A stretch of 64,000 bases of DNA from Candidatus Poribacteria bacterium (GCA_965232235.1 OZ246960.1:2918536-2982535); one strand, 5' to 3'. Positions 3,033-60,240 are shown, numbered from the stretch's first letter. The notes: a model not told the origin generated them from the sequence alone. Numbers and translations: made by a program.

Positions 3033-3059
3033 GTAGGTGCGGTTTCCAACCGCACCTAC
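3033..3059. repeat. Perfect 12-bp inverted repeat hairpin GTAGGTGCGGTT-tcc-AACCGCACCTAC, related to the tail module of the dispersed repeat family
   Basis: Read directly: 3033-3044 is the exact reverse complement of 3048-3059. No T-run follows on either strand. The same GTAGGTG..GGTTTCC..AACCGCACC words recur at 17606-17631, 31569-31591, 35429-35455, 37466-37485 and 38113-38192. Confidence 0.8.
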
Positions 3060-3329
3060 GGGATCGTATAAATTCTTGGTTTTACTATAAACCGCGTCCG
3101 CCTCCAGTTGCAAACGTCGCATTTTTGATACTTACGGTGCAAGTCATACCACAATTTTCCCTCTCAACTCACCTCGAAATCAATCTTTTTGGACTAATTC
3201 TACTTGGTTAGGAAATTGCAATGCGTTGGGGTCATAGTGTTAGTGGTTTATGCTTGACTCTATGATTTGTCGTAGTAAACTCGATGAGTCCTCTTAACTC
3301 GATTAGGTTCAAACACCTGAAATCATTTA

Positions 3330-5696
3330 GTGATACGCTTGGCATCAAGTCGAAAGAAAAATGGTCTGATGTGCCAAAGATTTGGTAGGAACAACGGCGT
3401 CCTAATATTTTTGTTGATAACGATTTTTCCAACGCTCCTATTTGCTCGGGGGACCGGACGTATCAACGGGTACTTGTATGACAAGGTCACCGGAGAACCG
3501 CTCCCCTATGCGAATGTAATGTTGCAAAACACCCAGTTTGCCGCAACAACCGATGTGCGTGGATATTATGTATTGAGCGGCATACCACCGGGTAAATTCA
3601 ATCTAATCGTATCAGCGAAACGATTTGAGCGGGTCGAAAAGGAAATAGAAGTTCAATCCGACGGTGAAATGAGATTGGACATTGAGGTCGTACCGGCAGC
3701 TATCCAACTTGATGAAGTGGAGGTAACTGGCGAAAAAACGCGATTCAAAGAAGAGGTGGAAATCAGCCGCACTAATATCAGTTTCCAAGAGATCGTCAAT
3801 ACCCCATCATTTGTTGAAGCCGATGTATTTCGGACAATACAGCAACTCCCAAGCGTCTCTTCACAAAGCGACTTTAGTTCTGCGCTGGTCGTGCGTGGTG
3901 GTAGTCCCGATGAAAACCTGATATTGGTTGATGGCGCGGAGATTTATAATCCGTATCATCTTGTCGGGTTATTCTCGACGTTTAACGCCGATACCATTGC
4001 TGATGCGAAATTCTTGGCTGGCGGTTATCCCGCAGAATACCCCGGAAGATTGTCCTCCGTTTTGGACATTACATCAAGAGAGGGCAAGCAAGTCAAAGGA
4101 AAGGGAGAAATCTCACTCCTCAGTAGCAAAATGATGTTGGAAGGGCCGTTCTATAAGGGCGCCTGGATTATATCCGGTAGAAGGACCTATTTTGATCTCA
4201 TTGCAGACCGGTTCAATCAAGCAAGAGGAGAGGATCAGGACTGGAAATACTATTTTTGGGACGGCCAAATCAAGATTTTTAGCGACCTGAATTCCGAAAA
4301 CAGATTGACGTTTTCGACCTTCGACGGGCGCGATGTCTTGAAGTTCTTCTTCGATGAGGAGAATTCTGATGAAAAGACAGATTTTAGCTGGGATTGGGGA
4401 AATAACGCTCCCAGTCTAAAGTGGCGGTTTGTTCCTAACGCAACGTTCTTCTCGGAATTTGTGCTGACACACTCGAATTTTGATTTTGACTTAAATCTGA
4501 AAACCACAGAGATTGACAGTGATGGAAACCAAGATGAAACAATCGCCAGCGCCATCAATCAAATTCGGGATTTTTCAGCCTCGGAGCAGTTGACATGGTA
4601 TCTCTCTCCTAAGCACACCCTCAAAATGGGAGCGGCGATAAAGAATCTAAGCATGAAATTCAACTTTCATGTGGATAACGTCAATTTCTTTGACATCAAG
4701 CAAAGCCCTCACGTCCTCAGCGCTTTTTTTCAGGATAGATGGAAGGTCAATAACCTGCTCTCACTTCAACTGGGATTGCGGGGTGCCAAATATGAGTTAC
4801 ATGATAATATCTATCTCGATCCGCGTATCGGATTCAAATACTTGTTGTCTGAAGACTGGGCATTCAAGGGGAGTTGGGGCAGGTTCAATCAATTCCTTTT
4901 CACCGTCAATGATGAAGATCAAGTGCTTCAGATAGTCGATTTTTGGTTGCCGGTACCCGAAGAATTTGATGCGATCAAAAACCAGCATTTCATCCTTGGA
5001 ATAGAAAGATGGTTCAATCCGGGATTTACCGGGTCGATTGAAACCTATTATAAACCCTATAGCAATGTCCTCACCAACAATCCTGGTAACGATCCTGGTA
5101 TAGAGCTTGATGAATTCATAGCCGGTACAGGACGCGTGTGGGGATTAGAGTTATTTCTGAAGAAAACTACCGGAAAAGTTTCAGGTTGGCTAGGCTATTC
5201 ATACTCTAATGTTGAACGACGATTCGATTTCAACGGCGATGGGAAGTTCGAAGAAACGGAAAACCAAGCGTCCGAGATTTATGCGCCGAAATATTCTAGA
5301 CCACATTCGCTCAACTTGGTTGCCAGTTATCAGGTGAGTAAGAGAAATCGGGTGTCGCTGTCCTGGACCATGTCTAGCGGTCAACCGTACACACCGGTCG
5401 TCGGCAAAGTCTATCATGAGGACGGTGCACTGGATGATCCCTACGCGCGAGTTATCAGTATTCAGGGTAGACGGAATTCTTCCCGTTATCCGGCCTATAT
5501 TCGAGGAGATATCGCATGGATCAGAGACATCTCCCCCTTTGGAGTAAACGGGAAATTTAAGCTTCAGGTCATCAATTTTACAAATCACTACAACTATCTA
5601 GTCTATCTTTGGAATCATGATAGTTCGCCTTCAGAAGTTCGATCCATCAGCATGTTCCCAATCATCCCGTCTTTTGGATTGGAATTCGAGTTCTAG
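3330..5696 (+). CDS. TonB-dependent receptor with N-terminal carboxypeptidase-regulatory-like domain
   Basis: 788 aa. N-terminal GRINGYLYDKVTGEPLPYANVML..GYYVLSGIPPGKFNL looks like a CarboxypepD_reg fold. A plug region follows (DVFRTIQQLPSVS..LVVRGGSPDENLILVDG), then a long beta-barrel ending in an aromatic residue (..FGLEFEF). Start is GTG 3330 or ATG 3369. Confidence 0.85.
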   Translation: MIRLASSRKKNGLMCQRFGRNNGVLIFLLITIFPTLLFARGTGRINGYLYDKVTGEPLPYANVMLQNTQFAATTDVRGYYVLSGIPPGKFNLIVSAKRFERVEKEIEVQSDGEMRLDIEVVPAAIQLDEVEVTGEKTRFKEEVEISRTNISFQEIVNTPSFVEADVFRTIQQLPSVSSQSDFSSALVVRGGSPDENLILVDGAEIYNPYHLVGLFSTFNADTIADAKFLAGGYPAEYPGRLSSVLDITSREGKQVKGKGEISLLSSKMMLEGPFYKGAWIISGRRTYFDLIADRFNQARGEDQDWKYYFWDGQIKIFSDLNSENRLTFSTFDGRDVLKFFFDEENSDEKTDFSWDWGNNAPSLKWRFVPNATFFSEFVLTHSNFDFDLNLKTTEIDSDGNQDETIASAINQIRDFSASEQLTWYLSPKHTLKMGAAIKNLSMKFNFHVDNVNFFDIKQSPHVLSAFFQDRWKVNNLLSLQLGLRGAKYELHDNIYLDPRIGFKYLLSEDWAFKGSWGRFNQFLFTVNDEDQVLQIVDFWLPVPEEFDAIKNQHFILGIERWFNPGFTGSIETYYKPYSNVLTNNPGNDPGIELDEFIAGTGRVWGLELFLKKTTGKVSGWLGYSYSNVERRFDFNGDGKFEETENQASEIYAPKYSRPHSLNLVASYQVSKRNRVSLSWTMSSGQPYTPVVGKVYHEDGALDDPYARVISIQGRRNSSRYPAYIRGDIAWIRDISPFGVNGKFKLQVINFTNHYNYLVYLWNHDSSPSEVRSISMFPIIPSFGLEFEF

Positions 5697-5706
5697 GAGC
5701 AAAACC

Positions 5707-6708
5707 GTGCGAATTATAAGAATTTCGATGATTATGCTTTTGTCCACGATTTTTGTCTCATGCGAGCGAGAACTGGATGTTGCCGATTTCAGAGATGATT
5801 TCGGAAATTACCAACCGGAATTAAAAGTTACGGGGCGGCTTCGGCAGGATAATCCGGCAGATTCCATCATCCGGATAATAAGAACCGAGGCGATTACGGA
5901 TTCCGATGTATTCGACGGAATTGATAATGACGGAGATGGGAGAATCGATGAATACGATGAAACCCTCCCGCTTATCCAAGATACGACGGCTATCGTCACA
6001 GTGACAAATTTGAAGTCGGGTGAAGAATACGAGTTTCAGTATGTTGAGTTGGCTGATAGGATTGTCATTCGGTTTCATGAAGATTCCTTCGGCGAAGGTG
6101 TCACAAATGAAATCCCTGATGGAGGCTACAAACCCAAGTCAAACCGTTTTCAGGTTGAACTCTACGCCCCATATCGAATTGAAGTCTATTCCAAAGCGTT
6201 CGATAAAACGATTACCGGTGTAACTACGGTTTATCCACCGGTTGAATTCATCGATATTGATACACTCTTGACCTTTGATGACGACCACATAACACTAAAG
6301 ACCAATGATGAAAAGGCAATCTTTTGGAAATCGGATTTGAATGTAACTTCATACTTCGTTACAGTTGATGTATCGGAGCGCATCCATGAAGATAAACCGG
6401 GATCTGGATTCGTCACTTCAACTTCATACTCATCTTCATCATCCAGGGATAACGATCTGACGGAAAAGCATGGCATTTCTATCGGAAAAGAAAACTTCTT
6501 TGTGAGCCGGGCCTCAAATGCTGGCAAGGTCCTAAGAATCACGGTTGAAGCGCTCAGTCCGGAATATGGAAGTTATGTCTTTTCATCACTGCCATTGAAT
6601 GATGCGCGAAGATCAAATCTTCGGGATCAAGACGGGAAACCTGTGATGGGTGCTTTCGGCGCTACCGCGGCGACAAGCGTACATGTGGCGATAGAGGAAG
6701 CTAGATGA
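5707..6708 (+). CDS. Lipoprotein partnered with the TonB receptor (DUF4249-like, tentative)
   Basis: AGGAG (5695-5699) lies 7 nt before GTG 5707. It has a lipoprotein signal (VRIIRISMIMLLSTIFVSC) and a Ca-binding-like DGIDNDGDGRIDEYDE motif. The family name is from memory of the TBDR+DUF4249 gene pairing. Confidence 0.5.
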   Translation: MRIIRISMIMLLSTIFVSCERELDVADFRDDFGNYQPELKVTGRLRQDNPADSIIRIIRTEAITDSDVFDGIDNDGDGRIDEYDETLPLIQDTTAIVTVTNLKSGEEYEFQYVELADRIVIRFHEDSFGEGVTNEIPDGGYKPKSNRFQVELYAPYRIEVYSKAFDKTITGVTTVYPPVEFIDIDTLLTFDDDHITLKTNDEKAIFWKSDLNVTSYFVTVDVSERIHEDKPGSGFVTSTSYSSSSSRDNDLTEKHGISIGKENFFVSRASNAGKVLRITVEALSPEYGSYVFSSLPLNDARRSNLRDQDGKPVMGAFGATAATSVHVAIEEAR

Positions 6709-6998
6709 GGCGAAGCGTTCGCATAATCTGAAGCCAATCTCGGAAGTACCGCTGTCATCTTCAGTTTTATAGGGCTTCGGTTGAATACATTTGTGACCTC
6801 CAAAATGCCGAAACATGGTCTTGCCACCTAATTCTCAAACAGGTTCTAAAGGAAGTGGGATTCGTATATAGCCATATACCGAATCTTTTGATAGAAAAGA
6901 TAGGTGTGGGGGCGAGGTACTTTTGGCGAAGTGCTTTTTCTTTCCCCTATACCTTCCACTCACCACTTACTTACATTTAATGCCAATAGGGGGCTATC

Positions 6999-7637
6999 AT
7001 GTACAAGCGAATAGTAACAACAGTCATCACAGCAATAGTGCTTGTTGCAGTAGGAAGCCTTGGTATGTATCTCTATATGGTATCTCCACCGATCCCAAAG
7101 GTGAGGAAGCCTGAAATGGCATCCCATAAAGAGTTGGAACCTGAAGTATCAGAAGCTATTCCTGATGTTACTGATATAGAAGTTGAGGAATTTCTAGCTA
7201 TAGTTGAAGAATCAGAAACAGAGGAAGTATCAGTATCCCCCTATGGTTTTGGACCTTATCCTGAAGTGCCGTCAGATTACCCCGAGGAAGTAGCATGGGA
7301 ACAAGATATACCTGAAGGCATGGGTAAACTCGCTGAGTTATTCGATAGAGTCTTAATTGAATTGTGGAATAGAGGAAACAAGGTTACATCTATCTCTGGT
7401 AACAGTTATAGAATGTACCCAAAATTACCAGACACTATTTATGTTACTTGGGGATACGACACAGATGAAGATGGGAATCAATCAAGGTATGCTAGCATAT
7501 TATCGTCTGGTACAGGTGTAAGTGAGGAAACACTTGATTCTATTGTTGATACAGGCGTTGTACCACAAGGTATAACGGTGTTAGATTATGAGTCAGACTA
7601 CATTGACCCATATGATTTTCTTAACCTTAAACGCTGA
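6999..7637 (+). CDS. Hypothetical membrane-anchored acidic protein
   Basis: Single N-terminal TM helix (IVTTVITAIVLVAVGSLGMYLYMV) followed by an acidic, Glu-rich region. No family recognised. Confidence 0.5.
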   Translation: MYKRIVTTVITAIVLVAVGSLGMYLYMVSPPIPKVRKPEMASHKELEPEVSEAIPDVTDIEVEEFLAIVEESETEEVSVSPYGFGPYPEVPSDYPEEVAWEQDIPEGMGKLAELFDRVLIELWNRGNKVTSISGNSYRMYPKLPDTIYVTWGYDTDEDGNQSRYASILSSGTGVSEETLDSIVDTGVVPQGITVLDYESDYIDPYDFLNLKR

Positions 7638-7866
7638 AAGATGAATTTACCCTCAAAAACTAGACAGTACATTAAGGTGGATTTCGGGCTGGCAAAACGG
7701 TCATGTTAGGAGTCATAATGTTGGTGGACTACGCTTGCACCAAGGACGTGTTGTGGCGAACTCAAAGAATCGTCATCGCGATAGGGATGAGTTGATTATC
7801 GCCGCTGCACAGATGAGCAACAATTTATTTCCCACCGTTCAAGCGAGGTGGAATCAGGAGGAAAAA

Positions 7867-8547
7867 GTGCGAGCAAAAAGATTTCATAGTTGTATAGTGC
7901 TGTTACTGTTGTCGGGAGGTTTCTGGACCGGGTGTGCCGCGAGAATCGTAGATGATTCACAACTCCAATATCTCGACCCGGAATTTACGGTTAACTCGCT
8001 CTTCGATCACGGTTTGGGCCTACTCCCCGTGGTTGCGGGGCAAGGCCAGGAGGGATTGCGCAGACCGTTAGCAGCAAAACTTGAAGCCCATCTTGCCACT
8101 CAATTGCCGGAGGGAAGATTTTATGGAGCAATTCAGACGCTCGATCTGATTAACGAAGCGAGCTTGACTGAAGACTATGCACAGATGATTGGTGACTACG
8201 AGCAAGCCGCGATCCTCAATAGGAGAACACTCCACGCAATTGGTAAAGCGACAGGAATTAGATACCTCCTGCACGTGAAACTCTTAGATCAGTCTCGTAC
8301 CGAAAGATTAGCACCTGCGTTTCTATCTGACGAGGTCGTTAGCTTAGAGGGCAAAAACGTTAGTATCTTCGGACAGGTTTGGGATTGTGGGGTAGGTGAC
8401 GTTGTTTGGGAGGGTACGGGCGAAGTTGCTGCCGAGGCGGAAGTTGAATTCCAATATGTAAAACATGACATTGATTATCTGGTGAGAATGGCGGCACATT
8501 CTTTCCTGAACAACCTTCCGGGCATTGCAATTCCTCGCACCAATTAG
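7867..8547 (+). CDS. Hypothetical lipoprotein
   Basis: The ORF is listed from 7735, but a strong AGGAGG lies 5 nt before in-frame GTG 7867. That start gives a lipoprotein signal VRAKRFHSCIVLLLLSGGFWTGC. No family recognised. Confidence 0.55.
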   Translation: MRAKRFHSCIVLLLLSGGFWTGCAARIVDDSQLQYLDPEFTVNSLFDHGLGLLPVVAGQGQEGLRRPLAAKLEAHLATQLPEGRFYGAIQTLDLINEASLTEDYAQMIGDYEQAAILNRRTLHAIGKATGIRYLLHVKLLDQSRTERLAPAFLSDEVVSLEGKNVSIFGQVWDCGVGDVVWEGTGEVAAEAEVEFQYVKHDIDYLVRMAAHSFLNNLPGIAIPRTN

Positions 8548-8586
8548 GCGAGAATTGACCATATTATCTGATGAAGGTATAAACAC

Positions 8587-9261
8587 ATGAGAATCACAAG
8601 CACTACCAATCAATCTCTTAATGTGGCTTGGACGTTAAGCATGGGAATCGCTTTGACCGTGTTGTGTTTTCTATTCCTCGGTTGCGGCGGGTCAACCCGG
8701 AACGATCCATATCGTATTCCCGAACTTAAGCCGACAGGTTCCGGCAAAACTACGGTTCCCCAAAAATCCGTCACGGAACCGTCGTCATTACCGCCGAGCG
8801 CCGAAGTTAGCCAAGGTCGACTTCGTCCGTTGGTTGAAACCTTCAAATCACAACAGCCACAGAATTTCAATGCACTTAACGCTACCACGGTTGGCAGAGC
8901 ATACGGCCTCACGATCTTGTCCAACTGCGATTTAGATGTTTTGAAGGCGTTCATTGTTAAGGGATGGGCACCGATTGTGTCTTTACGCACTAGCGGACGC
9001 TCACGACTTTGGGCTATGGTCGGATACAGTCCAGCTGGTGAGGTTGTACTGGAGAACCCGGTGGACAATCGGAGGAGAACCTTGTCGGAAGGGGAATTCA
9101 CAACTCAATGGGAATTGGCTTCGGCTACCAGATGCGCCCTAATCACACCGGGCAGGTTAGATCAAGCGAAAGTCCAGATGGCGCTAGATCGGTATCTTCC
9201 TCAATCCAAAGTCGAGCGGGTTAGAGTATCTCGGTCTACGCAAGGGCGCGCTCGTAACTGA
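8587..9261 (+). CDS. Hypothetical lipoprotein
   Basis: Lipobox FLFLGCGG lies after a hydrophobic segment. An alternative start is ATG 8641. No family recognised. Confidence 0.55.
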   Translation: MRITSTTNQSLNVAWTLSMGIALTVLCFLFLGCGGSTRNDPYRIPELKPTGSGKTTVPQKSVTEPSSLPPSAEVSQGRLRPLVETFKSQQPQNFNALNATTVGRAYGLTILSNCDLDVLKAFIVKGWAPIVSLRTSGRSRLWAMVGYSPAGEVVLENPVDNRRRTLSEGEFTTQWELASATRCALITPGRLDQAKVQMALDRYLPQSKVERVRVSRSTQGRARN

Positions 9262-9373
9262 CCGTTTTGGTTCTTCGTCACGATTCGGACTGGAATCTGT
9301 GTGAAAGCAGTCATAATTCACACTGTTAAGATAAAATAGGGGACTGGTGTCCGATAGGAAGGAGGTTATGTAG

Positions 9374-13669: not shown

Positions 13670-13759
13670 ACCAACCGTGCGTATCCAAATGTTGGCCGGA
13701 ATGAAGCAGGTGAGTGAAAAACTGGTCGAAGGTGCAAAAGCGAGTTAGGACGGAGGACG

Positions 13760-18027: not shown

Positions 18028-18111
18028 GTGGACTAAACAGTTACCAATTTCTCTAGAATGGCAGCGCAAAACTCGCAAACGGCGCGAATTGAAGTCGCGA
18101 TTCGGAGATTG

Positions 18112-18149
18112 AATAATCTCGATCGCGTTCCTTGTTCAGTCACTCGATC
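18112..18149 (-). repeat. Core unit of the dispersed repeat family, minus orientation
   Basis: The reverse complement reads GATCGAGTGACTGAACAAGGAACGCGATCGAGATTATT. The family consensus is GATCAAGCGACTGAATAGGGAGCGCGATAGAGATC. Confidence 0.75.
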
Positions 18150-18459
18150 CTACGGGGCGCTTCACTGTGTAACAGCTAAAGTCCTAACGAAATGATTGTT
18201 TCACTCTATGCACTATTATTCAAGAGAAATGGTATTTCCCGAAGAAAATTACGGAGGTAGTTCACCATTATAGAATAACATATCTGTTGGCTAGTTACAA
18301 GAACACGCGGAAATGTTTAACCGAACATGATTCAGTATGAAATATTAAGAATATTAATCCATTTTCGGGGCGAAATCAAAGTGAGTGGGGTGGCGGAATT
18401 ATGCAATTTCTGAGGGCGTTGTACGCGAATCTTCCAGTGGGCGCTGCCTTTCTTTTGAC

Positions 18460-28077: not shown

Positions 28078-28140
28078 GATCAATAATGCGGAGCTAGCGA
28101 ACCATAGGCATATCACAACCGCTCAGAATCCACATTCAAC
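28078..28140 (+). repeat. Degenerate copy of dispersed repeat family (unit + tail)
   Basis: GATCAATAATGCGGAGCTAGCGAACCATAGGCATATCACAACCGCTCAGAATCCACATTCAAC aligns with the unit and with tail ..CTAACCGCACCGACACCCAACACTTAAC at 38178-38208. Confidence 0.4.
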
Positions 28141-30944: not shown

Positions 30945-31415
30945 TTGGATAATGCCAAAACTCAGCACCGATGTGCCGCCGGAATTGTCGTACGCCTGAA
31001 CAAAGATTGCGTCGAATTCTTATTGTTAAAACAGATATGGACGACCGGCGAGGTTCAATGGGTCATGCCTAAGGGACACATTGAAAAAAGCGAAACCTGC
31101 GAGCAAGCAGCGATTCGCGAGGTGAGAGAAGAAGTCGGTCTTGAGGAACTTCGGCTTATTGCATGCTTGGGCAAGCAGGAGTTGCAGTATCGTGACGAGC
31201 ACGAAATTCAACACAAGAAAGTAGTCAGTTGGTATCTGATGGAAACACCCTATGAATCCCATCTTACTATCAAGGTTGAAAAGGGATTTGTCGAATCGAA
31301 GTGGCTTCCATACGAGGATGCGCGGAAACTGTGTTCATATGAAGACTTTCGAGAGTGGATAGATACGGCAGCAGATAATCTTAGGAATTACAGGCAACAC
31401 TCAGCCCCTGTTTGA
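30945..31415 (+). CDS. NUDIX hydrolase
   Basis: Nudix box GHIEKSETCEQAAIREVREEVGL. TTG start as listed. Its TGA stop (31413-31415) lies inside the leader module of a repeat element. Confidence 0.8.
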   Translation: MDNAKTQHRCAAGIVVRLNKDCVEFLLLKQIWTTGEVQWVMPKGHIEKSETCEQAAIREVREEVGLEELRLIACLGKQELQYRDEHEIQHKKVVSWYLMETPYESHLTIKVEKGFVESKWLPYEDARKLCSYEDFREWIDTAADNLRNYRQHSAPV

Positions 31416-31506
31416 AGAGTACAGTTTGCAGGGTGCGATCAAGCGAACGGATTGGGATCGCGATAGAAAATCCCATAGCAAATCCCGCGCGGTAGGGATA
31501 CATCGC
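31406..31506 (+). repeat. Repeat-family element I: leader module + one core unit + tail
   Basis: Leader CCCTGTTTGAAGAGTACAGTTTGCAGGGTG (31406-31436). Unit GATCAAGCGAACGGATTGGGATCGCGATAGAAAATCCC (31437-31474). Tail ATAGCAAATCCCGCGCGGTAGGGATACATCGC follows. Confidence 0.8.
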
Positions 31507-31609
31507 AGTACAGAAGAATCTGATTACTCAAGAAAGATGTATAATCATCAATTGCAATGACTATAGACGCTACCTGCGGTTTCCTAAGACGTGTGAAAAG
31601 TTACAGTTT

Positions 31610-37070: not shown

Positions 37071-37250
37071 TTATTACAACCTCCTAAAATTGTGGTTCAG
37101 GGATTGTGGGTATTTATGACGCCTTAAATCCGTACCTGCTTAAGGTCAAATTCTATCATAGGGCAAAGCGGGTGTCAACGGAATCTCAAAATTTCTGCTT
37201 CCCAAATCTGTCGGTCGAGGCTTAAATTATCTAGGTCGCTACTTAACTAA

Positions 37251-37641
37251 GGTGCTACCCATTCCTGTAGGTCAAGATCAAGTGACTGGATAAGGAACGC
37301 GACAGCAACTGCTTCATAGGGATCAAGTTAAGGAAGTTCGTCTAGTATTGGTGGAGTTCTTCGCCGCAAAACCCTTAACTTAGTCCCCATTGAGCTAGGA
37401 GTAAATCTCAATTTCACCCCATACGGTAGATGCGATCAAGCGACTGAAGAAGGGCGCGATGGAGTTCCCTTTCCAACCGCTCCGGTCCCCACGGAAACCA
37501 GTGTCATGAGTCACCATCTGTGGTGCACCCATCGACGAATGGGTTGGTATTCCATCGCCCATGTCTACATGGAGATTAACAGTTTAAGACATTAGAAACC
37601 GCGTGAATTGCGACCCAAAACGCTTAACTTGATCCTATAGG
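37251..37641 (+). repeat. Cluster of repeat-family fragments including an inverted-repeat pair
   Basis: Unit GATCAAGTGACTGGATAAGGAACGCGACAGCAAC starts at 37276. Unit + tail GATCAAGCGACTGAAGAAGGGCGCGATGGAGTTCCCTTTCCAACCGCTCCGG is at 37434-37485. Inverted repeat ATAGGGATCAAGTTAAG (37316-37332) pairs with CTTAACTTGATCCTAT (37623-37638). Confidence 0.7.
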
Positions 37642-37843
37642 CACGCGATAGCAATCGGTTCTAGCCCTACCGTCTTATAGGATAGGTCAGGATAAGTCAG
37701 AAACTTAGTCAATGTAAGCAAACTCGACTCAATTCGTCGCGCGCAATGATTGAGATAGATTGCATTTACAAGATTGCAGGCGATCCTATATAGAATTATT
37801 TGATGGCGGCAGAGGCGCTTGACTCAATAGCGGAAACGCACTC

Positions 37844-37872
37844 TTGACACAGTCTAGCTTCTATGTTAGAAT
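37844..37872 (+). promoter_or_regulatory. Sigma70-like promoter candidate (TTGACA-17 nt-TAGAAT)
   Basis: -35 TTGACA at 37844-37849, 17-nt spacer, -10 TAGAAT at 37867-37872. It would give a ~415-nt leader containing repeat copy 38101-38215 before the ThDP-enzyme ATG. Confidence 0.45.
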
Positions 37873-38100
37873 TTTGGAGTCTGTAGTCCCCGGTTTTTTC
37901 GTTTTAACTCGGAGTCTGAATTTTGCTAAAAACTACATCGTGATTTCCGTCGTGAGGTAGTCAATGCAAAGAATAATGAGTAACCGATCCACCTGTCGCT
38001 GGTTGCCGAAATCAACATAACAATCATCAGCTTGTCAATCGGTTCTTAAGTGGTTTATTCGTTAAGTGTTTAATGCTTACGAGACTGGCAAAAGAAACCC

Positions 38101-38215
38101 GTGCTACCACACCGGTAGGTGCGATCAAGTGACCGAATAGGATCCAACGAGTGAATAGCGAGTGCGATAAGGATCCCTTTCTAACCGCACCGACACCCAA
38201 CACTTAACCACATTT
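38101..38215 (+). repeat. Repeat-family element: ~1.5 core units + tail
   Basis: GTGCTACCACACCGGTAGGTGC is followed by GATCAAGTGACCGAATAG, GGATCCAACGAGTGAATAGCGAGTGCGATAAGGATCC, then tail CTTTCTAACCGCACCGACACCCAACACTTAACCACATTT. The two GGATCC words (38140, 38171) can pair. Confidence 0.8.
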
Positions 38216-38293
38216 ACTTAGAAAATAAACCATTGAGTTTGTTGTCCTTAGTTTATTTGTGTGTGTCATGTCATCGCAGTTTTGGAGATTGTA

Positions 38294-49605: not shown

Positions 49606-49680
49606 AAATTTCTTGCTAAGTGGTAGGAATTCTGGCTTTCGATTGGGTCTAATCCGTGGATAGAATGGAGCTATCGCAGA

Positions 49681-51114: not shown

Positions 51115-51192
51115 TCGGTATACGGACTACACGCGGAGCATGGCGGAGCGTCGGCTCACGGTTTAGCCTTAGACAAATTTGGGAGACGGTTC

Positions 51193-52585: not shown

Positions 52586-52633
52586 CCGTGCGTAATTGAC
52601 CAGGCAAGCTCACATCTGTACACTATCAAGACT

Positions 52634-53473
52634 TTATTTCCGCTGTCCAATTGCCAACATTAGCGTGTTCTCTAGCAGCATGGCGCGTGTCATCGGGCCC
52701 ACTCCTCCCGGCACAGGCGTAATGAACCCCGCGACCTTCCTGACCGATTCATAATCAACATCTCCGACAGCACGATTGTCGACGCGCGAGATTCCCACAT
52801 CAATCACAACTACCCCATCCGACACCATGGATTCTGTAACCATTCCCGGTTTGCCGGCTGCTACGACCAAAATTTCCGCATTTCGAGTTTCCTCAGCGAG
52901 GTCTCGAGTCCGAGTATGGCAGTATGTGACGGTAGCATTGCGGTTAAGTAGCATCTGTCCAACCGGTTTGCCGACAAGACTACTTCGTCCCAAGCAGACG
53001 GCGCGTTTTCCCTGAATCTCTACCCCTGTCGACTCGATTAAACGAATGACTCCCGTGGGGGTGCACGGCGTCACCCGTTCGCGGTTGATGAGGAGATTGC
53101 CTAAGTTAATAGGGCTGAGACCATCGGCATCTTTTTCCGGAGAAATGGTGTCAATCACAGCTTGCCCGTCTACTCCGGTCGGCAAAGGCATTTGCACAAT
53201 GATGCCATGAACATCCTCGCGCTCGTTCAGGTACTGAACCTGGCCGATGATTTCCGATTGCGTCGTGTTCGCTGGCATTTTGTAAACTTCCGACTGAAAC
53301 TTGACCCGTTTGCAATCCTTTTCTTTGTTAGCAACATAAATAGTGGACGCGGGGTCGTCTCCTACCTGAACTACGGCAAGCCCCGGAGTGAAATCCAGTT
53401 TTTTCACTCGGCGTCGGATTTGGCTGCGAATCGATTTGGCTAACTGACTGCCATCAATAATTTCAGCTGGCAT
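52634..53473 (-). CDS. folD: Bifunctional methylenetetrahydrofolate dehydrogenase/methenyl-THF cyclohydrolase
   Basis: Motifs: IIDG..LA, PGLAVVQVGDDPAS..YV, GIIVQMPLP, PCTP.G, GRS.LVGKP, TVTYCHTRT, PGGVGPMT. Confidence 0.92.
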   Translation of the reverse strand: MPAEIIDGSQLAKSIRSQIRRRVKKLDFTPGLAVVQVGDDPASTIYVANKEKDCKRVKFQSEVYKMPANTTQSEIIGQVQYLNEREDVHGIIVQMPLPTGVDGQAVIDTISPEKDADGLSPINLGNLLINRERVTPCTPTGVIRLIESTGVEIQGKRAVCLGRSSLVGKPVGQMLLNRNATVTYCHTRTRDLAEETRNAEILVVAAGKPGMVTESMVSDGVVVIDVGISRVDNRAVGDVDYESVRKVAGFITPVPGGVGPMTRAMLLENTLMLAIGQRK

Positions 53474-53656
53474 CTAGTCCTTACTCCCGTGATGAAATTC
53501 GTACGTGATTAATTCCCCCATCTATGTTGCCGATGCTGGATCGTTGTCTTGCAAGCTATTCCACGTCCTTCGAACCGTGCGAATTATATCACATTCTACG
53601 ACTTCTTTTTGAGGTCTTTTTTCCCCGTTCACAATTAGATTCTTTCTTTGCTTTAA

Positions 53657-53883
53657 GAGCCTGTTTGAAAAGTACACTTGTAGGGTGAAATCAACCAAGC
53701 GGATAGCGCGGGATCAAGCGAATGGATAATGAGTGCGATAGTGAATCCCGATAGAAATCCATCAAGCGACTGAACAGGGAGCGCGATAGAGATCGCACAC
53801 GTATGTAGCGGACAAGAAAAAACCTGAAAAGACTTTTGCAAATGACCAAAAATGGTTTTGCGACCGATTATTCAAACACGTTC
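53657..53883 (+). repeat. Repeat-family element II: leader + about 3 core units + tail; possibly MITE-like
   Basis: Leader CCTGTTTGAAAAGTACACTTGTAGGGTG (53660-53687). Units at 53688-53711 (partial), 53712-53749 and 53761-53794. Imperfect inverted ends GAGCCTGTTTGAA / TTCAAACACGTTC (11 of 13) are flanked by TAA on both sides. Confidence 0.75.
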
Positions 53884-54046
53884 TAAGTGATGACGCATCC
53901 GTAGTATTCGAATACGGTTAGGCGTTATTTCGCCATAACCCCATTGAGAAGATTCCATCTTGACATATTGACTTGATTTTGGGATAATCGGACCGTGAGG
54001 AACAGTCGTCAGAATACGGAGGGATACGAAAGGAAGGGTACGATTA

Positions 54047-55222
54047 ATGATGCGCGTTGGCGTTGGACAGAGCCAAAAGACCGTTTTGGTTGATGCCCTT
54101 GAAGGTGCCACCACGATTGCAATGGGTAACGCACAGCTGGCGAAGGCAGATTTAGCAGTTGTTTTCGCTACGGTAGATTATCAAGCTGACTACGGGGAAC
54201 TCTTTAACACGATTCATGAGATATCGGGGTGTGACAATCTTGTCGGCTGCAGCGGAATGAGTGTACTCACCTCGGCAGGGGAGTTTGAAGGTGAACCTGC
54301 CGTTGCCGTGCTTGTCCTACGGTCGGAAGACGTTTCCGTAATGCCCTTCTTGGTTTCATCGGATGATTCCGCAACGATTGGACCAGCGATACGCGAGTGC
54401 ATATCGTCCAAGTTTCGCGAAAACTCGCTCCTGGTTGTGTTACCGGATGCACGCTGTATTAGCCCTGAAGCGCTTGTGCACCAACTCGGCGAAGATGGAA
54501 CCAGGCTCCCAATTGTGGGAGCAGCAGCATCGGGCAGCCCAGACGGTCAATACATTTATGAGTGGCGTGATAAGGAGGTCGTGGAAGCGGGGGTTGCAGG
54601 GCTGTTGCTGACGGGTGCAATCCATACCGAAATAGGAGTAGCACAAGGCTGCCAACCAATTGGGCACCTACTGCAAATCACCCGTGCGGAGGGGAACGTC
54701 ATTTACGAAGTCGACAGCAATCCTGCACTTGACAGTCTGCAAGGGGCCCTTGAATCCTTGACAGCCGAAGATCTTCGTGAATCAGGGCGTGTTGTGTTTG
54801 TAGGCATTGCAATGGATAAGGAAAATCCGGTGCCTCGGCGCGGTGATTTCCTCGTGCGTAATCTGGTCGGTTATGACAAGGATAGTGGCGCAATCGCTGT
54901 ATCTGAAGGCGTGTCGGCAGGTCAGCTTATACAATTTCACTTGCGAAATCCATCCTCCGCGAATAAAGAGATTCAAGAAATTGTCCTTGATTTGCATGAG
55001 CGAACACGTGAACGTCCGCCAGCTTTCGGAATGTATTTCAACTGCTTGGGAAGAGGGAAGGGACTATACGGGAAGGCGAATCACGATATTCGGATTATCA
55101 AGCAGAGATTTCCGGATCTCCCGATTATCGGTTTCTTTGGCAATGCGGAATTTGCTCCAATCGGCGGGCGGAATTTTGCCCATGCTTACACCGGTGCGCT
55201 TGTACTTTGCTCCGAAGGGTGA
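54047..55222 (+). CDS. Stand-alone FIST-domain protein (FIST_N + FIST_C), no output domain
   Basis: Pattern AVVFATVDY..GCSGMSVL.., LLVVLPD, VAQGCQPIG, and C-terminal IIGFFGNAEFAPIGG..FAHAYTGALVL typical of FIST_C. Confidence 0.7.
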   Translation: MMRVGVGQSQKTVLVDALEGATTIAMGNAQLAKADLAVVFATVDYQADYGELFNTIHEISGCDNLVGCSGMSVLTSAGEFEGEPAVAVLVLRSEDVSVMPFLVSSDDSATIGPAIRECISSKFRENSLLVVLPDARCISPEALVHQLGEDGTRLPIVGAAASGSPDGQYIYEWRDKEVVEAGVAGLLLTGAIHTEIGVAQGCQPIGHLLQITRAEGNVIYEVDSNPALDSLQGALESLTAEDLRESGRVVFVGIAMDKENPVPRRGDFLVRNLVGYDKDSGAIAVSEGVSAGQLIQFHLRNPSSANKEIQEIVLDLHERTRERPPAFGMYFNCLGRGKGLYGKANHDIRIIKQRFPDLPIIGFFGNAEFAPIGGRNFAHAYTGALVLCSEG

Positions 55223-55311
55223 TATTACGGTCAAAAACTCGCCCGATGTCGTTTTGGATTAAGAATAATCCAGGCCGTATCGTTCACCACGGTGCAATAG
55301 AGAAAACACAA

Positions 55312-56463
55312 ATGATCAGTAGTAGGAAGATTCACGTTGTGATCGTTGGCGCCGGTATTGTTGGAGCCGTAATCGCTTACTGCCTGTCACGTCGCGACAA
55401 TGTCAATGTAACAGTTCTGGAAAAGTCCGACCCGGGGTTGGGTGCATCGGGGCACTCCTTTGCTTGGCTGAATTCCTTCGGAAAGGATCCGGTAGGATAT
55501 CACAATCTGAACTGTCGATCCATGGACATGTGGCATCGATTTGCCCACGCACTTGACCGAGACATTGGGTTCCAATGTGGCGGACAACTCCGATGGGAAA
55601 ACACCGACGAAGGAGCACGGGCATTGCGCCAACGTGTCAAACAGTTACAGGAACGGGGATACGCCTGTCGGACCATTACCGCAGCGGAGATGCATCAACT
55701 AGAACCCGGCTTGTTGCCCGGCACCGTAAAGGCAGCATCGTTGTCACAAGCCGATGGTTGCGTCGAACCGCTCAAAGCCATCGAAGCATGTTTGGAGAAG
55801 ACGCGTGAACGTGGAGCCGCAGTACACATGCGAACTCCCGTAACCGGCATGTCTCTTGGAAATGGTACGAACACATCACGACAAGTCAAGGCACTAATTA
55901 CACCGTGCGATGAGTTCAATTGCGACATCGTGGTGCTGGCGGGCGGCATTCACACGAAGCAACTTGCCGCTATGGCTGGAGTGTCTATCCCTCAACAGGA
56001 AAGCCCGGGCGTGGTTGTTCGCACCACTCCTTGTCCGCCCCTGCTATGTTGCGTTTCCGTTATCCATGCGCCGAAGAGTGATGTCCATCGTCGTGATGTT
56101 CACCTGCGGCAATCATCGGACGGAACACTGGCGATTGGTCAAGGCTCCCAAGAGAGCCTAAATCGCGACGATTCACAGGAACATGCCGACGAATTGCTCG
56201 ACCGGGCAAGACACTACCTACCATCAATTTCGGATGCCTCGGCTATCCCGGTACCGGTCGGTTATCGTCCAATGCCGATTGACGGTTTCCCGGTGCTCGG
56301 GTTCGTATCAGCCGTTCCCAATCTCTATGTTGCGTTTATGCACAGCGGCGTCACATTGGCTCCGCTAGTAGGCGAATTTGCAGCGCGGGAGATTGTGGAT
56401 GGAGCGCGTATTAAGATGCTGAAGCCTTACCGGCCTGAGCGATTTGGACCGGATGCCCAATAA
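55312..56463 (+). CDS. FAD-dependent oxidoreductase (DAO/glycine-sarcosine oxidase-like family)
   Basis: Dinucleotide-binding start KIHVVIVGAGIVGAVIAYCL at internal ATG 55312 (the ORF is listed from 55207). The ~380-aa DAO-family length fits. Confidence 0.75.
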   Translation: MISSRKIHVVIVGAGIVGAVIAYCLSRRDNVNVTVLEKSDPGLGASGHSFAWLNSFGKDPVGYHNLNCRSMDMWHRFAHALDRDIGFQCGGQLRWENTDEGARALRQRVKQLQERGYACRTITAAEMHQLEPGLLPGTVKAASLSQADGCVEPLKAIEACLEKTRERGAAVHMRTPVTGMSLGNGTNTSRQVKALITPCDEFNCDIVVLAGGIHTKQLAAMAGVSIPQQESPGVVVRTTPCPPLLCCVSVIHAPKSDVHRRDVHLRQSSDGTLAIGQGSQESLNRDDSQEHADELLDRARHYLPSISDASAIPVPVGYRPMPIDGFPVLGFVSAVPNLYVAFMHSGVTLAPLVGEFAAREIVDGARIKMLKPYRPERFGPDAQ

Positions 56464-56694
56464 ACGAGATTGTGGCAGAGTCCGTGTCAGGTGGATACTC
56501 CGTTTAGTTTGAAAGTCATTTTGACCAAGAACTACACGAGTGAGACTCACGAAAATCGGTTTGTAGGGACGATCTCCTGGTCACGACTGCATATGCGTGG
56601 AAGGCCAAGATGCCGCGCCTACGGAATTGCCCCACAAGTCTATTTGTGTATGGATTAACGTGAATGACTATAACAGCGTAGGCTAGGCATTATC

Positions 56695-57192
56695 ATGAAT
56701 ATTGGGTACGAGGTTTATGAAAATTACCTCCAATCCTTCGGCAGCCGTCTGAAATCGTCCTTTGGTAGTGAGAGAATTCTCTCCATTGCACTTTTCGGAT
56801 CTGTTGCGAGAAGGCAAGCCCGATCGGACAGTGATATTGACCTCTTGGTAGTCCACAAAGAAGTGGATTTCAACCCGGTACACCGGTCTGTCGATATTGT
56901 TCTTGCGTTAAGGGAGGAAAACGAGTATAAGCGCCTTATTGAGCAAGAGCTGAATCCGCAGCCTTTTTGCATCTTCATGACCGAGGGTGAACTTTGGGAT
57001 AGACCGCACATCTTACTCGACATTCTCGTCGAAGGCATCCTGCTATATGACATAGGCGTATTGGAGTCTCGCCTCCAAGCACTGAGAGAGCGGCTCAACG
57101 CCTTGGGATCGAAACGAGTTGCGTTACCGGACGGGACATGGTATTGGGATTTGAAACCGGACTGGAAGCCGGGTGAGATAATCGAGTTATGA
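56695..57192 (+). CDS. Nucleotidyltransferase-domain protein (MNT-type, putative antitoxin)
   Basis: Minimal NTase motif GSVARRQARSDSDIDLLV. It overlaps the downstream HEPN gene by 4 nt (ATGA). Confidence 0.75.
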   Translation: MNIGYEVYENYLQSFGSRLKSSFGSERILSIALFGSVARRQARSDSDIDLLVVHKEVDFNPVHRSVDIVLALREENEYKRLIEQELNPQPFCIFMTEGELWDRPHILLDILVEGILLYDIGVLESRLQALRERLNALGSKRVALPDGTWYWDLKPDWKPGEIIEL

Positions 57193-57599
57193 ACAATACC
57201 GACCTAAATGGCAGGCTAATCCTAGAGTCTCAGATGATCATGGAGGAAGCAAGACGTGCATTCAACAGCGAAGCTTGGAATCTCGTCGTACGAAGGTCGC
57301 AAGAGGTGGTTGAATTGTCGCTGAAGGGGCTTTTGAAGCTCATGGGTGTCGAATCTCCGAAAACACACGATGTTGGTGACACCTTCGCCAAAGTCTGTAC
57401 GGATAAGAAAATTGCGATTTCGAGTCGGAAACTGGCGGAGATGCAACGGATTTCTCATCAGTTGGCACGTGATCGGGCACCTGCGTTTTATATGGAGAAA
57501 GAATATTCACGAGAACAAGCTAGCCAAGCCTTGCAGTCCGCCGAAACAGTGTTAACCGAAGCCGAAGAAATGACTCAAAGACTTAATTTAGCCAGGTAA
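57189..57599 (+). CDS. HEPN-domain protein (putative toxin partner of MNT)
   Basis: ~136-aa all-helical protein. The pattern EEARRAF..W.LVVRRSQEVVELSLKGLL...G...PKTHDV matches the classic HEPN fold context, and it is coupled to the MNT gene. Confidence 0.65.
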   Translation: MNNTDLNGRLILESQMIMEEARRAFNSEAWNLVVRRSQEVVELSLKGLLKLMGVESPKTHDVGDTFAKVCTDKKIAISSRKLAEMQRISHQLARDRAPAFYMEKEYSREQASQALQSAETVLTEAEEMTQRLNLAR

Positions 57600-57639
57600 T
57601 ACTAATCTCTATCGAATTAATACGCGGAGTACGTTAATT

Positions 57640-58659
57640 GTGAAAGCGGCAGTATTTGAGCAAACAGGTAAACTGAGTATACGGGACAAGCCTATTCCGA
57701 ATCTCGTCTCTGGCGATGTCCTTATCAAGGTCGATCTGTGCGGTGTCTGTGCTTCCGACCTCGCCGCCCTCAACGGGGACGTTACGGATTATTCACCTCC
57801 TGTCGTGATGGGGCATGAACTTGCCGGTGTTGTTGTCGACAGCCGACATTCTAATGTAATGGTCGGCGACAAAGTTACTGTCAACCCAATGCTCTCGTGT
57901 GGAACCTGCGAATACTGTCAAGCCGACCTAGACAAATATTGTGAAAACATTGAAGGGATTGGACACGATATTGACGGCGGATACGCCGAATACATGCGCA
58001 TGCCGAAACACGGGATAGACACCGGCAAACTCATTTCTGTCCCGCAATCAATCACCGCGGAAGCCCTCCTTTTTCTTGAGCCTTTGGGGTGTTGTCTCAA
58101 TGCGATGCGCGAGACCATTTTTGACAAGAGTGTGGCAATCTTGGGCGCTGGTCCCATCGGACTCCTGTTCGCCCAATTGACCAAAAAAAGCGGCTTGCAG
58201 ACGTTCGTGTTAGAGCCGCTTGCTCATCGTCGCGGAGCGGCAGAGAAAATTGGTGTAGAAGCGGCTATTGACATCACAGAGGAACGCATTGCCGCGCTTA
58301 TTGAGACTACCAATGGCGGTGTAGACACCGTCATATCGGCGACGACGAACAATCAACGTGCTATTGACCTTGCGTTCAAAGTTGCCCGGCGTGGAGGCTG
58401 CATCAACTTCTTCGGACTTGCTCCCGCCGGACAGGAAATTCGGGTCAATCTAGAACACTTTCACTACATGGGCAACAAATTGATGGCGTCGTGGGCGTTC
58501 TCACGATGGAGTCTGAACGAGTCTCGCCGGATACTTATCGGACAGGAGCTTGATTTTACGCCACTACTCACGCATCGATTTCCCGTTAAACAAGCGGTTG
58601 AAGCATTTGAAAACGCGCGGAAACAGCAAGGTGTGAAAAGCGTTCTTACCGGCGCATGA
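57640..58659 (+). CDS. Zinc-dependent medium-chain alcohol/polyol dehydrogenase
   Basis: Catalytic Zn ligands CGVCASD..GHELAGVV, structural Zn cluster CGTCEYCQADLDKYC and NAD motif LGAGPIG. GTG start. Confidence 0.85.
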   Translation: MKAAVFEQTGKLSIRDKPIPNLVSGDVLIKVDLCGVCASDLAALNGDVTDYSPPVVMGHELAGVVVDSRHSNVMVGDKVTVNPMLSCGTCEYCQADLDKYCENIEGIGHDIDGGYAEYMRMPKHGIDTGKLISVPQSITAEALLFLEPLGCCLNAMRETIFDKSVAILGAGPIGLLFAQLTKKSGLQTFVLEPLAHRRGAAEKIGVEAAIDITEERIAALIETTNGGVDTVISATTNNQRAIDLAFKVARRGGCINFFGLAPAGQEIRVNLEHFHYMGNKLMASWAFSRWSLNESRRILIGQELDFTPLLTHRFPVKQAVEAFENARKQQGVKSVLTGA

Positions 58660-58861
58660 ATTGCACCAGATTGAACGGTGCGGGCAAAGCGTGTGGACAT
58701 ATCGGTTCACTTTGAGCGTAGAAGCAAGAATATAACCGTAATATTACTGGCACTGAAACTGCATTCAATATACTTGCAATACTTGCACAACGATCGCGAA
58801 TCTCCCAACTTGAACACATAGGCACCACATCCAAACAACTCACTCTTCTTGAGCGCTATTC

Positions 58862-59785
58862 GTGATGAAGACCTTGAAGGCATTCCTTGAACTCATCCGA
58901 TATCCCCTCTTTGCCATCCCGATTGTCGCCACTCTGCCGGGGACTCTAATTGCGTCCGAGGGGCGAATAAACTGGCGTGTCGGAGTAACGTTGTTGACAG
59001 CCCTGCTCGGGTACTTCGCGGGGATGATGAAAAACGATTACTTCCACCGGGGACAAGATGCGGTCGCGAATCCGCACCGTCCGCTTCCGTCACACCGATT
59101 AACTCCCCGGCAGGTAATGATTACGGCGAGCACTATCTATATCGTCTGCGTTATTCTAGGATTTGTGCTCCATTTCAAGGCAGGGCTACTCGTGGTTGCT
59201 CTTGTGATGATTTCCCACTGTTACAACGCCATTTTCAAAGAGCGCGGAGTATTGGGAAGCATCAGTCTACCAATCGGCATTGGGTTGCTAAACGTATTTG
59301 GCGCGTTAGCCGTGAGCGGCGGGGTACCGCGCTTGGCTTGGTATGCGTTTGCCGCAACAATGCTCTACGATTGCGGCACGCACATTACGACAACTTTCAA
59401 GGACATTGAGCGTGACAAGAAAATCGGGATAACTACCACTCCCCTACAGTTGGGCATCAAACCTGCGCTCGCCGTTTCCGCCATTGCAACAATCTGTGCC
59501 TTCATCGTTGCGGCTTTGCCGCACTGGTTGGAAGGCGTCAGTTGGCACTACACTCTATGGATTCTCTGTGCGTTGATTGCCACGAGTATTACCCGACTGC
59601 CGCTCTATCTGGAGGCAAACGAAAAGAACGGTTATCGCGCATTGAAGGGTTCCATGGTTGGCGCCATAACATTTTTTCCCTGTCTAATTGGCGTCCAATT
59701 CTCGATATGGCAGTCCGCGCTAGTCATTGTGCCGCTCCTCTTGATAACGCTGGTTCTATTGCAGATCACGAAGCGGGAAGTTTAG
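58862..59785 (+). CDS. UbiA-superfamily prenyltransferase with atypical first Asp-rich motif
   Basis: 8-9 TM helices. The first motif NDYFHRGQD (59033-59059) has His where the canonical NDxxDxxxD has Asp. The second motif is FKDIERDKKIG. Confidence 0.75.
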   Translation: MMKTLKAFLELIRYPLFAIPIVATLPGTLIASEGRINWRVGVTLLTALLGYFAGMMKNDYFHRGQDAVANPHRPLPSHRLTPRQVMITASTIYIVCVILGFVLHFKAGLLVVALVMISHCYNAIFKERGVLGSISLPIGIGLLNVFGALAVSGGVPRLAWYAFAATMLYDCGTHITTTFKDIERDKKIGITTTPLQLGIKPALAVSAIATICAFIVAALPHWLEGVSWHYTLWILCALIATSITRLPLYLEANEKNGYRALKGSMVGAITFFPCLIGVQFSIWQSALVIVPLLLITLVLLQITKREV

Positions 59786-60036
59786 CTCGACTTTGTACAA
59801 ATGTACAACGATTGGATTGTACGGAAAGGCGTACAAAACCAAACTCGTACGCGGGAATCAAGCGACTGAATAGGGAGCGCGATAGAAATCCCCTTGCCCC
59901 GCCGTGATGGCACTGGAATCCGCCGCCGACTTTTTCAATGGTCAACCAAAAAGACCAGATGGTTAAAATCTCTCCCACTTTTCTTCAACGCTTGAATGAC
60001 ACCGTTCGTTGTCTCGCTCAAATGTACAAAGTCGAG
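59786..60036 (+). mobile_element. 251-bp MITE-like element carrying one core unit of the repeat family
   Basis: Perfect 14-bp terminal inverted repeats CTCGACTTTGTACA (59786-59799) and TGTACAAAGTCGAG (60023-60036). The 5-bp direct repeat TTTAG lies on both flanks (59781-59785, 60037-60041). Internal unit AATCAAGCGACTGAATAGGGAGCGCGATAGAAATCCCC is at 59856-59893. No ORF with coding features. Confidence 0.85.
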
Positions 60037-60041
60037 TTTAG

Positions 60042-60240
60042 GACCTGTTTGAAACGTACACTTGTCGGGTGAGATTAAACGAACGATCAACTGAGTGAAT
60101 AGCGAAGGATCAAGCGACTGAATAAGGAGATCACGGGAGATCAAACGAACGAATAGTGAGTGCGATAGAGATCTTGATAGCGATCGCATTAGAGATTCCA
60201 TAGAGATCCACTGATCGCCATCCACAAAACACTTACCTTC
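60042..60240 (+). repeat. Repeat-family element III: leader + about 4 tandem core units + tail
   Basis: Leader GACCTGTTTGAAACGTACACTTGTCGGGTG (60042-60071). Units at 60073-60107, 60108-60136 and 60139-60173, plus degenerate 60174-60223. Tail CCACAAAACACTTACC follows. Confidence 0.8.

Follow-up and report, generated by a model that had tools for sequence, protein, structure and literature searches.

This 64,000-nt stretch of a Candidatus Poribacteria genome (OZ246960.1:2918536-2982535; the whole stretch is referred to as the window) raises the question of what kind of element recurs as a short, variable sequence in its intergenic spacers. Poribacteria are uncultivated symbionts of sponges. A first-pass annotation, made from the window alone, had described a leader, degenerate units and a C-rich tail. 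The repeat is indeed non-coding, dispersed, modular and intergenic, and the Rfam search suggested at that time yields no match. Its core is a 37-nt unit, which is probably a structured module in a mosaic of selfish intergenic repeats specific to one Candidatus Poribacteria lineage and similar to repetitive extragenic palindromes (REPs), with their REP-associated tyrosine transposases (RAYTs), and bacterial interspersed mosaic elements (BIMEs). The unit is lodged preferentially near the apex of GTAG-tagged palindromes, as well as in a BOX-like composite and in miniature inverted-repeat transposable elements (MITEs). It behaves as mobile DNA, with gain, loss and decay of copies distinguishing the orthologous spacers of related species, and it is unrelated to the function or orientation of neighbouring genes.

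An ungapped alignment of ∼310 copies confines the information to positions 4–40, with none in the flanks. The consensus is GATCAAgcGAnyGrATArnGAgyGCGATAGaratccc, in which A5–A9, G12 A13, G16, A18, A20, G23 A24 and G27–G33 are at least 96% invariant; the earlier consensus agrees with it except at positions that covary. The fold consists, in order, of helix P1 (5–7 with 29–31), an AA/GC mismatch (8, 9 with 27, 28), two Watson-Crick pairs, a tandem G·A / A·G, two further Watson-Crick pairs, a G-R-A-U-A loop and a 3′ tail, AGAGAUCCC. The bases A8 A9 and G27 C28, located between P1 and the inner helix P2, are at least 98% invariant. The paired positions vary together: pair 10-26 is GC in 116 copies, GT in 103, AT in 46 and CG in 33; pair 11-25 is CG in 231, TA in 52 and GC in 13; pair 14-22 is GC in 104, AT in 100 and CG in 91; and pair 15-21 is TA in 136, CG in 87 and TG in 81.

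In a 140-sequence alignment the inner helix is 98.2% paired, with compensatory changes at all four Watson-Crick pairs, and no shuffle or slid register approaches this value. G·U cells number 97 in this alignment, compared to 10 non-pairs of any kind; thus, folding is possible only on the unit's own strand. RNAalifold independently finds the same helix and adds an invariant AUC/GAU helix of 3 pairs. The consensus fold is weak (−5.9 kcal/mol as RNA), and 114 distinct stem haplotypes are present among 313 units. An outer GGGATC/GATCCC helix was considered and rejected, being only 73% paired with weak covariation. The unit can be divided into a 5′ module (GATCAA plus the hairpin) and a 12-nt 3′ module, each of which also occurs alone in tandem (at 38121, 60082, 31463–86, 53741–60 and 60166–215). 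The second GATC is often missing, since 113 of 310 copies have A instead of G at position 35. GATC is itself scarce in the window (231 sites, compared to 344±17 in shuffled sequences), yet up to two are found per unit; a restriction or methylation system directed at GATC could account for the scarcity.

A covariance model built from 140 unit copies and run over the whole window with filters off identifies nine full units (E-values from 2.5e-11 to 3.3e-5; Table 1). Their scores grade from 64 to 34 bits, showing copies in decay. A repeat search of the window recovers eight copies on the + strand and one on the minus strand, plus the shared leader. The first-pass core consensus has 2 matches in the window when up to 3 mismatches are allowed and a degenerate consensus has 7, compared to none for either in 100 dinucleotide shuffles, the control that had been proposed. 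The nine full units and the partial ones had thus been placed correctly, whereas the copies listed at 28078–28140, 6950, 58810–58850 and 17606 have no covariance-model or hidden Markov model (HMM) match even at E≤10. The supposed short relative at 3033 is actually a perfect, empty REP palindrome (GTAGGTGCGGTTTCCAACCGCACC), and those at 31576 and 35428 have only a GGTTTCC core in common with that palindrome. Matches to this core number 3 in the window, compared to 0.59 expected, a count reached by 2 of 100 shuffles.

To define the distribution of the unit, an exact degenerate pattern was scanned against a collection of bacterial and archaeal genomes, one for each species; the collection does not include the window's own genome, and its closest FolD is 92% identical to that of the window. 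The pattern occurs in at least 114 stretches and, among the matches listed, all are from Candidatus Poribacteria metagenome-assembled genomes (MAGs) except for one MAG. Further copies exist, in the hundreds, in Candidatus Poribacteria genomes. Loci from other phyla, 1.5 Mb in total and including 79 RAYT loci, contain no unit, nor do IMG/VR viral contigs. Density was estimated from loci anchored on FolD, hence picked irrespective of unit presence: 32 units are found in 187 kb from the close clade and 16 in 125 kb from a clade at 70% FolD identity, and the window itself contains 9–12 per 64 kb. The density of about 0.15–0.17 per kb corresponds to the order of a thousand units per 6-Mb genome. 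No unit is present at 57 RAYT loci (185 kb) from other Poribacteria species, and the unit is thus limited to a sub-lineage rather than distributed phylum-wide.

The sites at which the unit resides connect it to REPs. The shared tail reported earlier is present at 37467 and 38175, but it does not belong with the leader in a single element: its sequence is the last CCC of the unit and, after that, part of a separate REP hairpin tagged with GTAG, namely the loop and the 3′ arm; the palindrome of this hairpin (REP-B) is GTAGGTGCGGTTTCYAACCGCACC. For 29% of units a GTAG is present in the 14 nt upstream (background 4–8%), at offsets −9, −8 and −4, and for ∼7% it directly abuts the unit. At least four GTAG palindromes that are unrelated to one another have a unit at an equivalent position, after GTAGGGTGC, GTAGGTGC, GTAGGCGGG or GTAGGAGGGA, and at locus L324 a unit is found within yet another GTAG palindrome.

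Two MITE families also carry the unit. MITE-P1 is flanked by a 5-bp target duplication, TTTAG, at 59781–85 and 60037–41, and its unit, the best-scoring copy in the window, is placed in the loop of a GGCGGG/CCCCGCC hairpin; MITE-P1 copies without a unit exist as well. The insertion point of the window element coincides exactly with the stop codon of UbiA, whose TAG is part of the duplication, and at least 14 further ends of this family, with YTWAG duplications, are found in other Poribacteria loci. The second family is represented by a 197-nt insertion relative to four orthologues (L116:13830–14030), with 12-bp inverted ends (GTAACTGTTTAG), an 8-bp duplication (AAAATTTC) and one unit aboard.

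A third type of host, composite A, is common in unit-bearing Poribacteria genomes. It is ∼129 nt long and consists, in order, of CCTGTTTGAAAAGTACA, GTAGGGTGCGCActGCGCACC, GCCCCagcGGGG, GAAGGTGTGTAGAAACGCC and GCCCCAGCGGGGCGACAGG, with a fixed head of ∼64 nt and a fixed tail of ∼65 nt. Six copies contain no unit, five contain one at a fixed site where it replaces CG, and two or more contain units at two sites. Its first 30 nt are the leader described earlier (pattern CCTGTTTGAA..GTACA..G[T/C]AGGGTGC), which is confirmed at 31407, 53660 and 60044; the three copies in the window retain the 5′ part only, and the 3′ half is absent from the window. The BOX-like architecture proposed in the first-pass annotation is correct insofar as a true A-B(n)-C composite exists, although the leader and tail that suggested it are not from one element. 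The proposed leader stem, in which CCTG pairs with a nearby partner, does not hold: the partner is the GTAG head of a REP, and about half of 14 copies have an uncompensated change on one side.

The unit content of orthologous spacers changes rapidly. Across nine species syntenic with window positions 43–63 kb, units differ in almost every spacer. The FolD–FIST spacer contains 2 units in the window, 1–2 in two species and none in seven; the UbiA–EamA spacer contains at least 3 in the window, 1–2 in three species and none in the other four comparable species; and other spacers have none in the window and 3–4 elsewhere. The UbiA–EamA array has a 3′ edge common to four genomes, with different content. 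The variable unit number suspected earlier is thus borne out between species at orthologous sites. When clean single-unit insertions between orthologues were sought, the inserts were larger mosaics, save for one REP-B pair (L275/L276). In that pair, located upstream of RAYT genes that are 99% identical, the REP is empty in L275 and occupied in L276 by units forming an 84-nt array, which stands in place of GG and is without duplication.

Units within 400 nt of each other are arranged head-to-tail in 153 pairs, tail-to-tail in 27 (often 0–20 nt apart) and head-to-head in 12, and one ORF-poor stretch (ORF, open reading frame) of ∼3 kb contains 9–11 co-oriented units. Ten ORFs between inverted units, checked for a transposase, all encode ordinary enzymes. 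Higher-order repeats were also observed: three units at an exact 122-nt period (L126:4502–4788) and a repeat of ∼258 nt (L047:1880–2600). In two species, the ∼35-nt spacer between convergent units is reverse-complemented (L124:7318–7424 compared to L127:7344–7450), indicating that the segment between inverted units has flipped.

A census of 383 units, based on simple ORF calls, shows no dependence on neighbouring genes. The units are 92% intergenic; 31 lie within ORFs, 109 are sense and 95 antisense between co-directional genes, 57 are in divergent spacers and 28 in convergent spacers, and the density per kb is alike across all spacer types. A mild sense excess is seen in short spacers only (23 compared to 10). 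The strand of the unit, examined against chromosome position and local GC skew, has no clear pattern with respect to replichore orientation. The window neighbours have no common theme (NUDIX, disulphide reductase, AhpC, thiamine pyrophosphate (TPP) enzyme, FolD, FIST, UbiA, EamA, DAHP synthase and citrate synthase). The strong strand bias of the window (43 of 50 called genes on the + strand) and its GC skew, positive throughout, are consistent with a single replichore.

RAYT genes are present in Poribacteria, a link to the REP/RAYT system that was missed when the repeat was first presented as novel. A tblastn search with the E. coli RayT sequence matched three Poribacteria ORFs, all of which are REP-associated tyrosine transposases by NCBIfam NF047646 (180, 126 and 106 bits; cut-off 80). 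Approximate IS200 and IS608 TnpA sequences gave no tblastn matches. One RAYT (L049:2654–3232, OZ244829.1) lies within the densest unit cluster, ∼20 units in ∼16 kb, and is bracketed by inverted palindromes of the form GTAGGGTGC–unit–GCGCACC. Its closest relatives come from cyanobacteria (59% identity), and its best 80 relatives listed include no other Poribacteria genome, which suggests that it was horizontally acquired. A second type, represented by L086, is Poribacteria-specific, with 62 loci in more than 40 species; identity falls sharply, to 35–46%, in other phyla. On its upstream side is GTAGGYGCGGTTTCYAACCGCRCC in + orientation and on its downstream side the same palindrome in − orientation, and this inversion about the gene marks the palindrome as a true REP. 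RAYTs are usually single-copy; L086-type genes (L275–L335, L345) often number 2–4 per genome (e.g. OZ253447.1, CBDBPM01). The repeats regularly flanking RAYT genes are REP-B palindromes rather than units, and units are found in the upstream REP at 3 RAYT loci.

In E. coli, an AA/GC mismatch interrupts the 10 bp of the REP and is required for RAYT binding, and the transposase TnpA-REP does not contact the tip of the REP hairpin (PMC3479197). Because an invariant AA/GC mismatch between two helices is similarly present in the unit, a RAYT-type Y1/HUH enzyme probably reads its hairpin in single-stranded DNA form; the resemblance to the E. coli requirement is one of architecture only. Since the tip is uncontacted, a unit located there would be tolerated and copied along with the REP. 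Arrays would grow and shrink by slippage between GATC-bounded modules.

Several observations weigh against such a REP-like module. GTAG is lacking near 71% of units. No enzyme could be linked to the unit: RAYTs of the L049 type are found in one Poribacteria genome among the relatives listed, and those of the phylum-wide L086 type are also present in many unit-free species, including those of the 57 loci noted above. No clean cut-and-paste footprint is observed, as inserts replace 1–3 nt without target duplication. The hairpin is very weak, and absent from the minimum-energy fold under DNA parameters. Neighbouring units are mostly direct (153) rather than inverted (39), unlike REPINs (REP doublets forming hairpins). 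The tandem G·A and GNRA-like pentaloop look like an RNA protein-binding motif, and the retention of invariant bases while stems vary could instead reflect selection on each copy.

We also entertain, with distinctly less confidence, that the unit is either among the smallest self-defined mobile elements known, invading REP hairpin loops, or a protein-binding structured RNA or single-stranded DNA module selected at about a thousand sites in one Poribacteria lineage; both possibilities require a dedicated recognition protein. A functional RNA hairpin, serving as the site for a lineage-specific RNA-binding protein and transcribed in untranslated regions and in long ORF-free, unit-rich stretches as multi-site RNAs, with spread as DNA being secondary, would account for the tolerance of G·U pairs on one strand alone, the invariant tandem G·A between Watson-Crick pairs, the weak fold, which implies a protein partner, and the contrast between unpaired bases that are more than 97% invariant in ∼310 copies and the many stem haplotypes. 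Its Y-GRAUA-R loop could take a GNRA-like fold, for which phage boxB offers a comparison. The predominance of co-oriented neighbours, the ∼3-kb unit-rich stretch and the sense excess in short spacers point the same way. However, units are oriented almost randomly to genes overall, the information-free flanks contain no promoter or terminator at a conserved distance, copies decay and their presence varies among close species, no Rfam family matches, and G·T pairs are common in REPs too (PMC3733652). On balance this explanation appears somewhat unlikely.

We consider it unlikely that the unit is itself a mobile element whose movement depends on an enzyme targeting the hairpin loops of REPs and similar palindromes, making it in effect a parasite of parasites. 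Such an element would explain the shared position in at least four unrelated palindromes, the unit-sized insertions and deletions that distinguish paralogous composite A copies, the orthologous REP-B site that lacks a unit in one species and contains units in another, and a distribution that follows neither RAYT family. Nevertheless, most units have no GTAG nearby, the complementarity of their flanks is barely above that of the control (−7.6 compared to −7.2 kcal/mol), and no target duplication, fixed junction or candidate enzyme was found. It is very unlikely that the unit serves as a site in double-stranded DNA, bound for example by a nucleoid protein or used in GATC methylation and sequestration. 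The two GATC sequences bounding each unit in a GATC-poor window would fit such a role, as would the parallel with BIMEs, whose motifs bind host proteins such as IHF and gyrase; but compensatory changes and one-strand G·T tolerance are meaningless for a duplex, and the second GATC is often lost. Finally, a cis-regulatory 5′ leader of the downstream gene, as implied by the earlier claim that units are co-oriented with that gene, is highly improbable, since the agreement in all five unit-bearing window spacers is not significant given 43 of 50 genes on the + strand, and at the family level the reading is refuted by the sense and antisense counts of the census, in addition to the unrelated downstream genes, the units in convergent spacers and the variation among orthologues.

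Table 1. Units, modules, leaders and carrier elements in the window.
Feature	Position	Strand	Evidence
REP-B palindrome GTAGGTGCGGTTTCCAACCGCACCTAC, empty host hairpin	3033..3059	+	0 mismatches vs 0 expected
Unit, GTAG abutting its 5′ end	18110..18152	-	34.5 bits
Leader, 5′ end of composite A, truncated	31407..31437	+	Sequence repeat
Full unit, then 12-nt tail repeat at 31463-31486	31434..31476	+	45 bits; Tandem Repeats Finder period 12
Decayed unit, 3′ module mutated	37273..37315	+	35.9 bits
REP-B hairpin, arms GGTAGATGC ... AACCGCTCC, split by unit 37431-37472; 3′ part is the tail of the first-pass annotation	37425..37484	+	
Decayed unit, 1-nt stem deletion, inside REP-B hairpin	37431..37472	+	35.2 bits
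REP-B hairpin, arms GGTAGGTGC ... AACCGCACC, split by units; 3′ part is the tail of the first-pass annotation	38114..38192	+	
5′ module or partial unit preceding unit 38138	38121..38141	+	Model/HMM match
Full unit inside REP-B hairpin	38138..38180	+	42.3 bits
Leader, 5′ end of composite A, truncated	53660..53687	+	Sequence repeat
Full unit	53709..53751	+	56.4 bits
Full unit	53757..53799	+	51.9 bits
MITE-P1, 251 bp, 14-bp perfect terminal inverted repeats (CTCGACTTTGTACA / TGTACAAAGTCGAG), carries unit 59853	59786..60036	+	
Full unit, 3-nt flanks, best copy	59853..59895	+	63.8 bits, E=2.5e-11
Leader, 5′ end of composite A, truncated	60044..60072	+	Sequence repeat
Partial unit, 5′ module alone	60082..60116	+	Partial-unit pair 60082-60141: nhmmer E=1.7e-6 and 0.057; covariance model 19.6 bits
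Unit with degenerate 3′ half	60105..60141	+	As given for pair 60082-60141
Full unit, last of head-to-tail array	60136..60178	+	58.6 bits
Tandem 12-nt 3′ modules (GATAGAGATCYY) ending the array at 60.1 kb	60166..60215	+	Sequence; 3′ boundary common to L115-L117 orthologues

Three of the units lie in an ORF-free stretch of 1.2 kb (37071–38260) between AhpC and the TPP enzyme gene, which also contains a further repeat (CCAACCGCTCCGGTCCCCACGGAAACCAGTGTCATGAGTCACC...) recurring in L035, L050, L067 and L074, as well as sigma-70-like TTGACA/TAGAAT boxes near 37855–37885. A 96-residue ORF on the minus strand (59935–60225) is probably an artefact of the repeat array plus MITE.

The unit is best read not as a gene regulator but as a previously undescribed form of selfish intergenic repeat, of the REP/BIME/BOX type. 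As such, it adds a layer to the REP/RAYT system, a conserved, structured cargo in REP loops and other repeats that covaries and folds on one strand. If a RAYT-type enzyme reads the unit, the substrate range of such enzymes is broader; if something else does, a new protein is indicated. In practical terms, ∼1,000 copies per genome will break assemblies and spawn false ORFs such as that at 59935–60225, and could mark the lineage. Covariation-based RNA screens could easily misread the unit as a regulatory RNA.

Comparison with known systems rejects several identities. A CRISPR array does not fit units that are mostly solitary or abutting with irregular spacing, nor do type III toxin-antitoxin RNA repeats fit the housekeeping genes that flank them; hammerhead and other small ribozymes, CsrA GGA sites and K-turns misfit by eye in register and required bases. 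Rfam at gathering score has 0 matches in the window and in 142 kb from 18 loci. At E≤10, in two stretches, nothing matches the full unit or composite, and the hits (snoR100, Fibro-purF, STnc470 and two others) are at chance level. No description of Poribacteria intergenic repeats or of the unit was found in the literature, and none is in Rfam. A "Poribacteria-1" RNA motif is said to have been described (Weinberg 2017), but was not found in the text of that paper and is unconfirmed.

The similarities are partial for the mobile elements. The two MITE carriers (window 59786–60036 and L116) have terminal inverted repeats and target duplications, whereas the unit itself has neither. IS1397 and ISKpn1 are full insertion sequences that encode a transposase and insert in REP loops; the unit has the same preferred harbour but is 37 nt long and non-coding. 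The BOX elements of pneumococcus and S. suis (boxA-boxB(n)-boxC; PMC3049150) are closer, since composite A likewise has a fixed head and tail enclosing 0 to several modules, the module number varies between genomes and the module folds alone. They differ in phylum and, as judged by eye only, have no sequence resemblance; furthermore, the unit also occurs in REP loops, in MITEs and alone, and the window copies lack the 3′ half of the composite.

The closest parallel is REP/BIME-RAYT (PMC3733652, PMC3479197, PMC3116915). GTAG tags more than 90% of the members of REP families in the GTAG superfamily (PMC3733652), compared to a nearby GTAG for only 29% of units; this tag and inverted doublets as the main form are two defining features of REPs that the unit lacks. 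It is also palindromic only in part, with a weak hairpin containing an invariant tandem G·A, is predominantly head-to-tail, lies inside the loops of other REPs and has no cognate RAYT identified. Nevertheless, the unit is similar to REPs in being extragenic, in its length (within the range of 20–40 nt) and in its ∼1,000 copies per genome; it occurs as singletons, clusters and tail-to-tail dimers, its stems covary with G·T pairs included, and an AA/GC mismatch divides its hairpin into two helices. Genomes with the unit also encode RAYTs, whose genes have GTAG palindromes on either side that frequently contain a unit.

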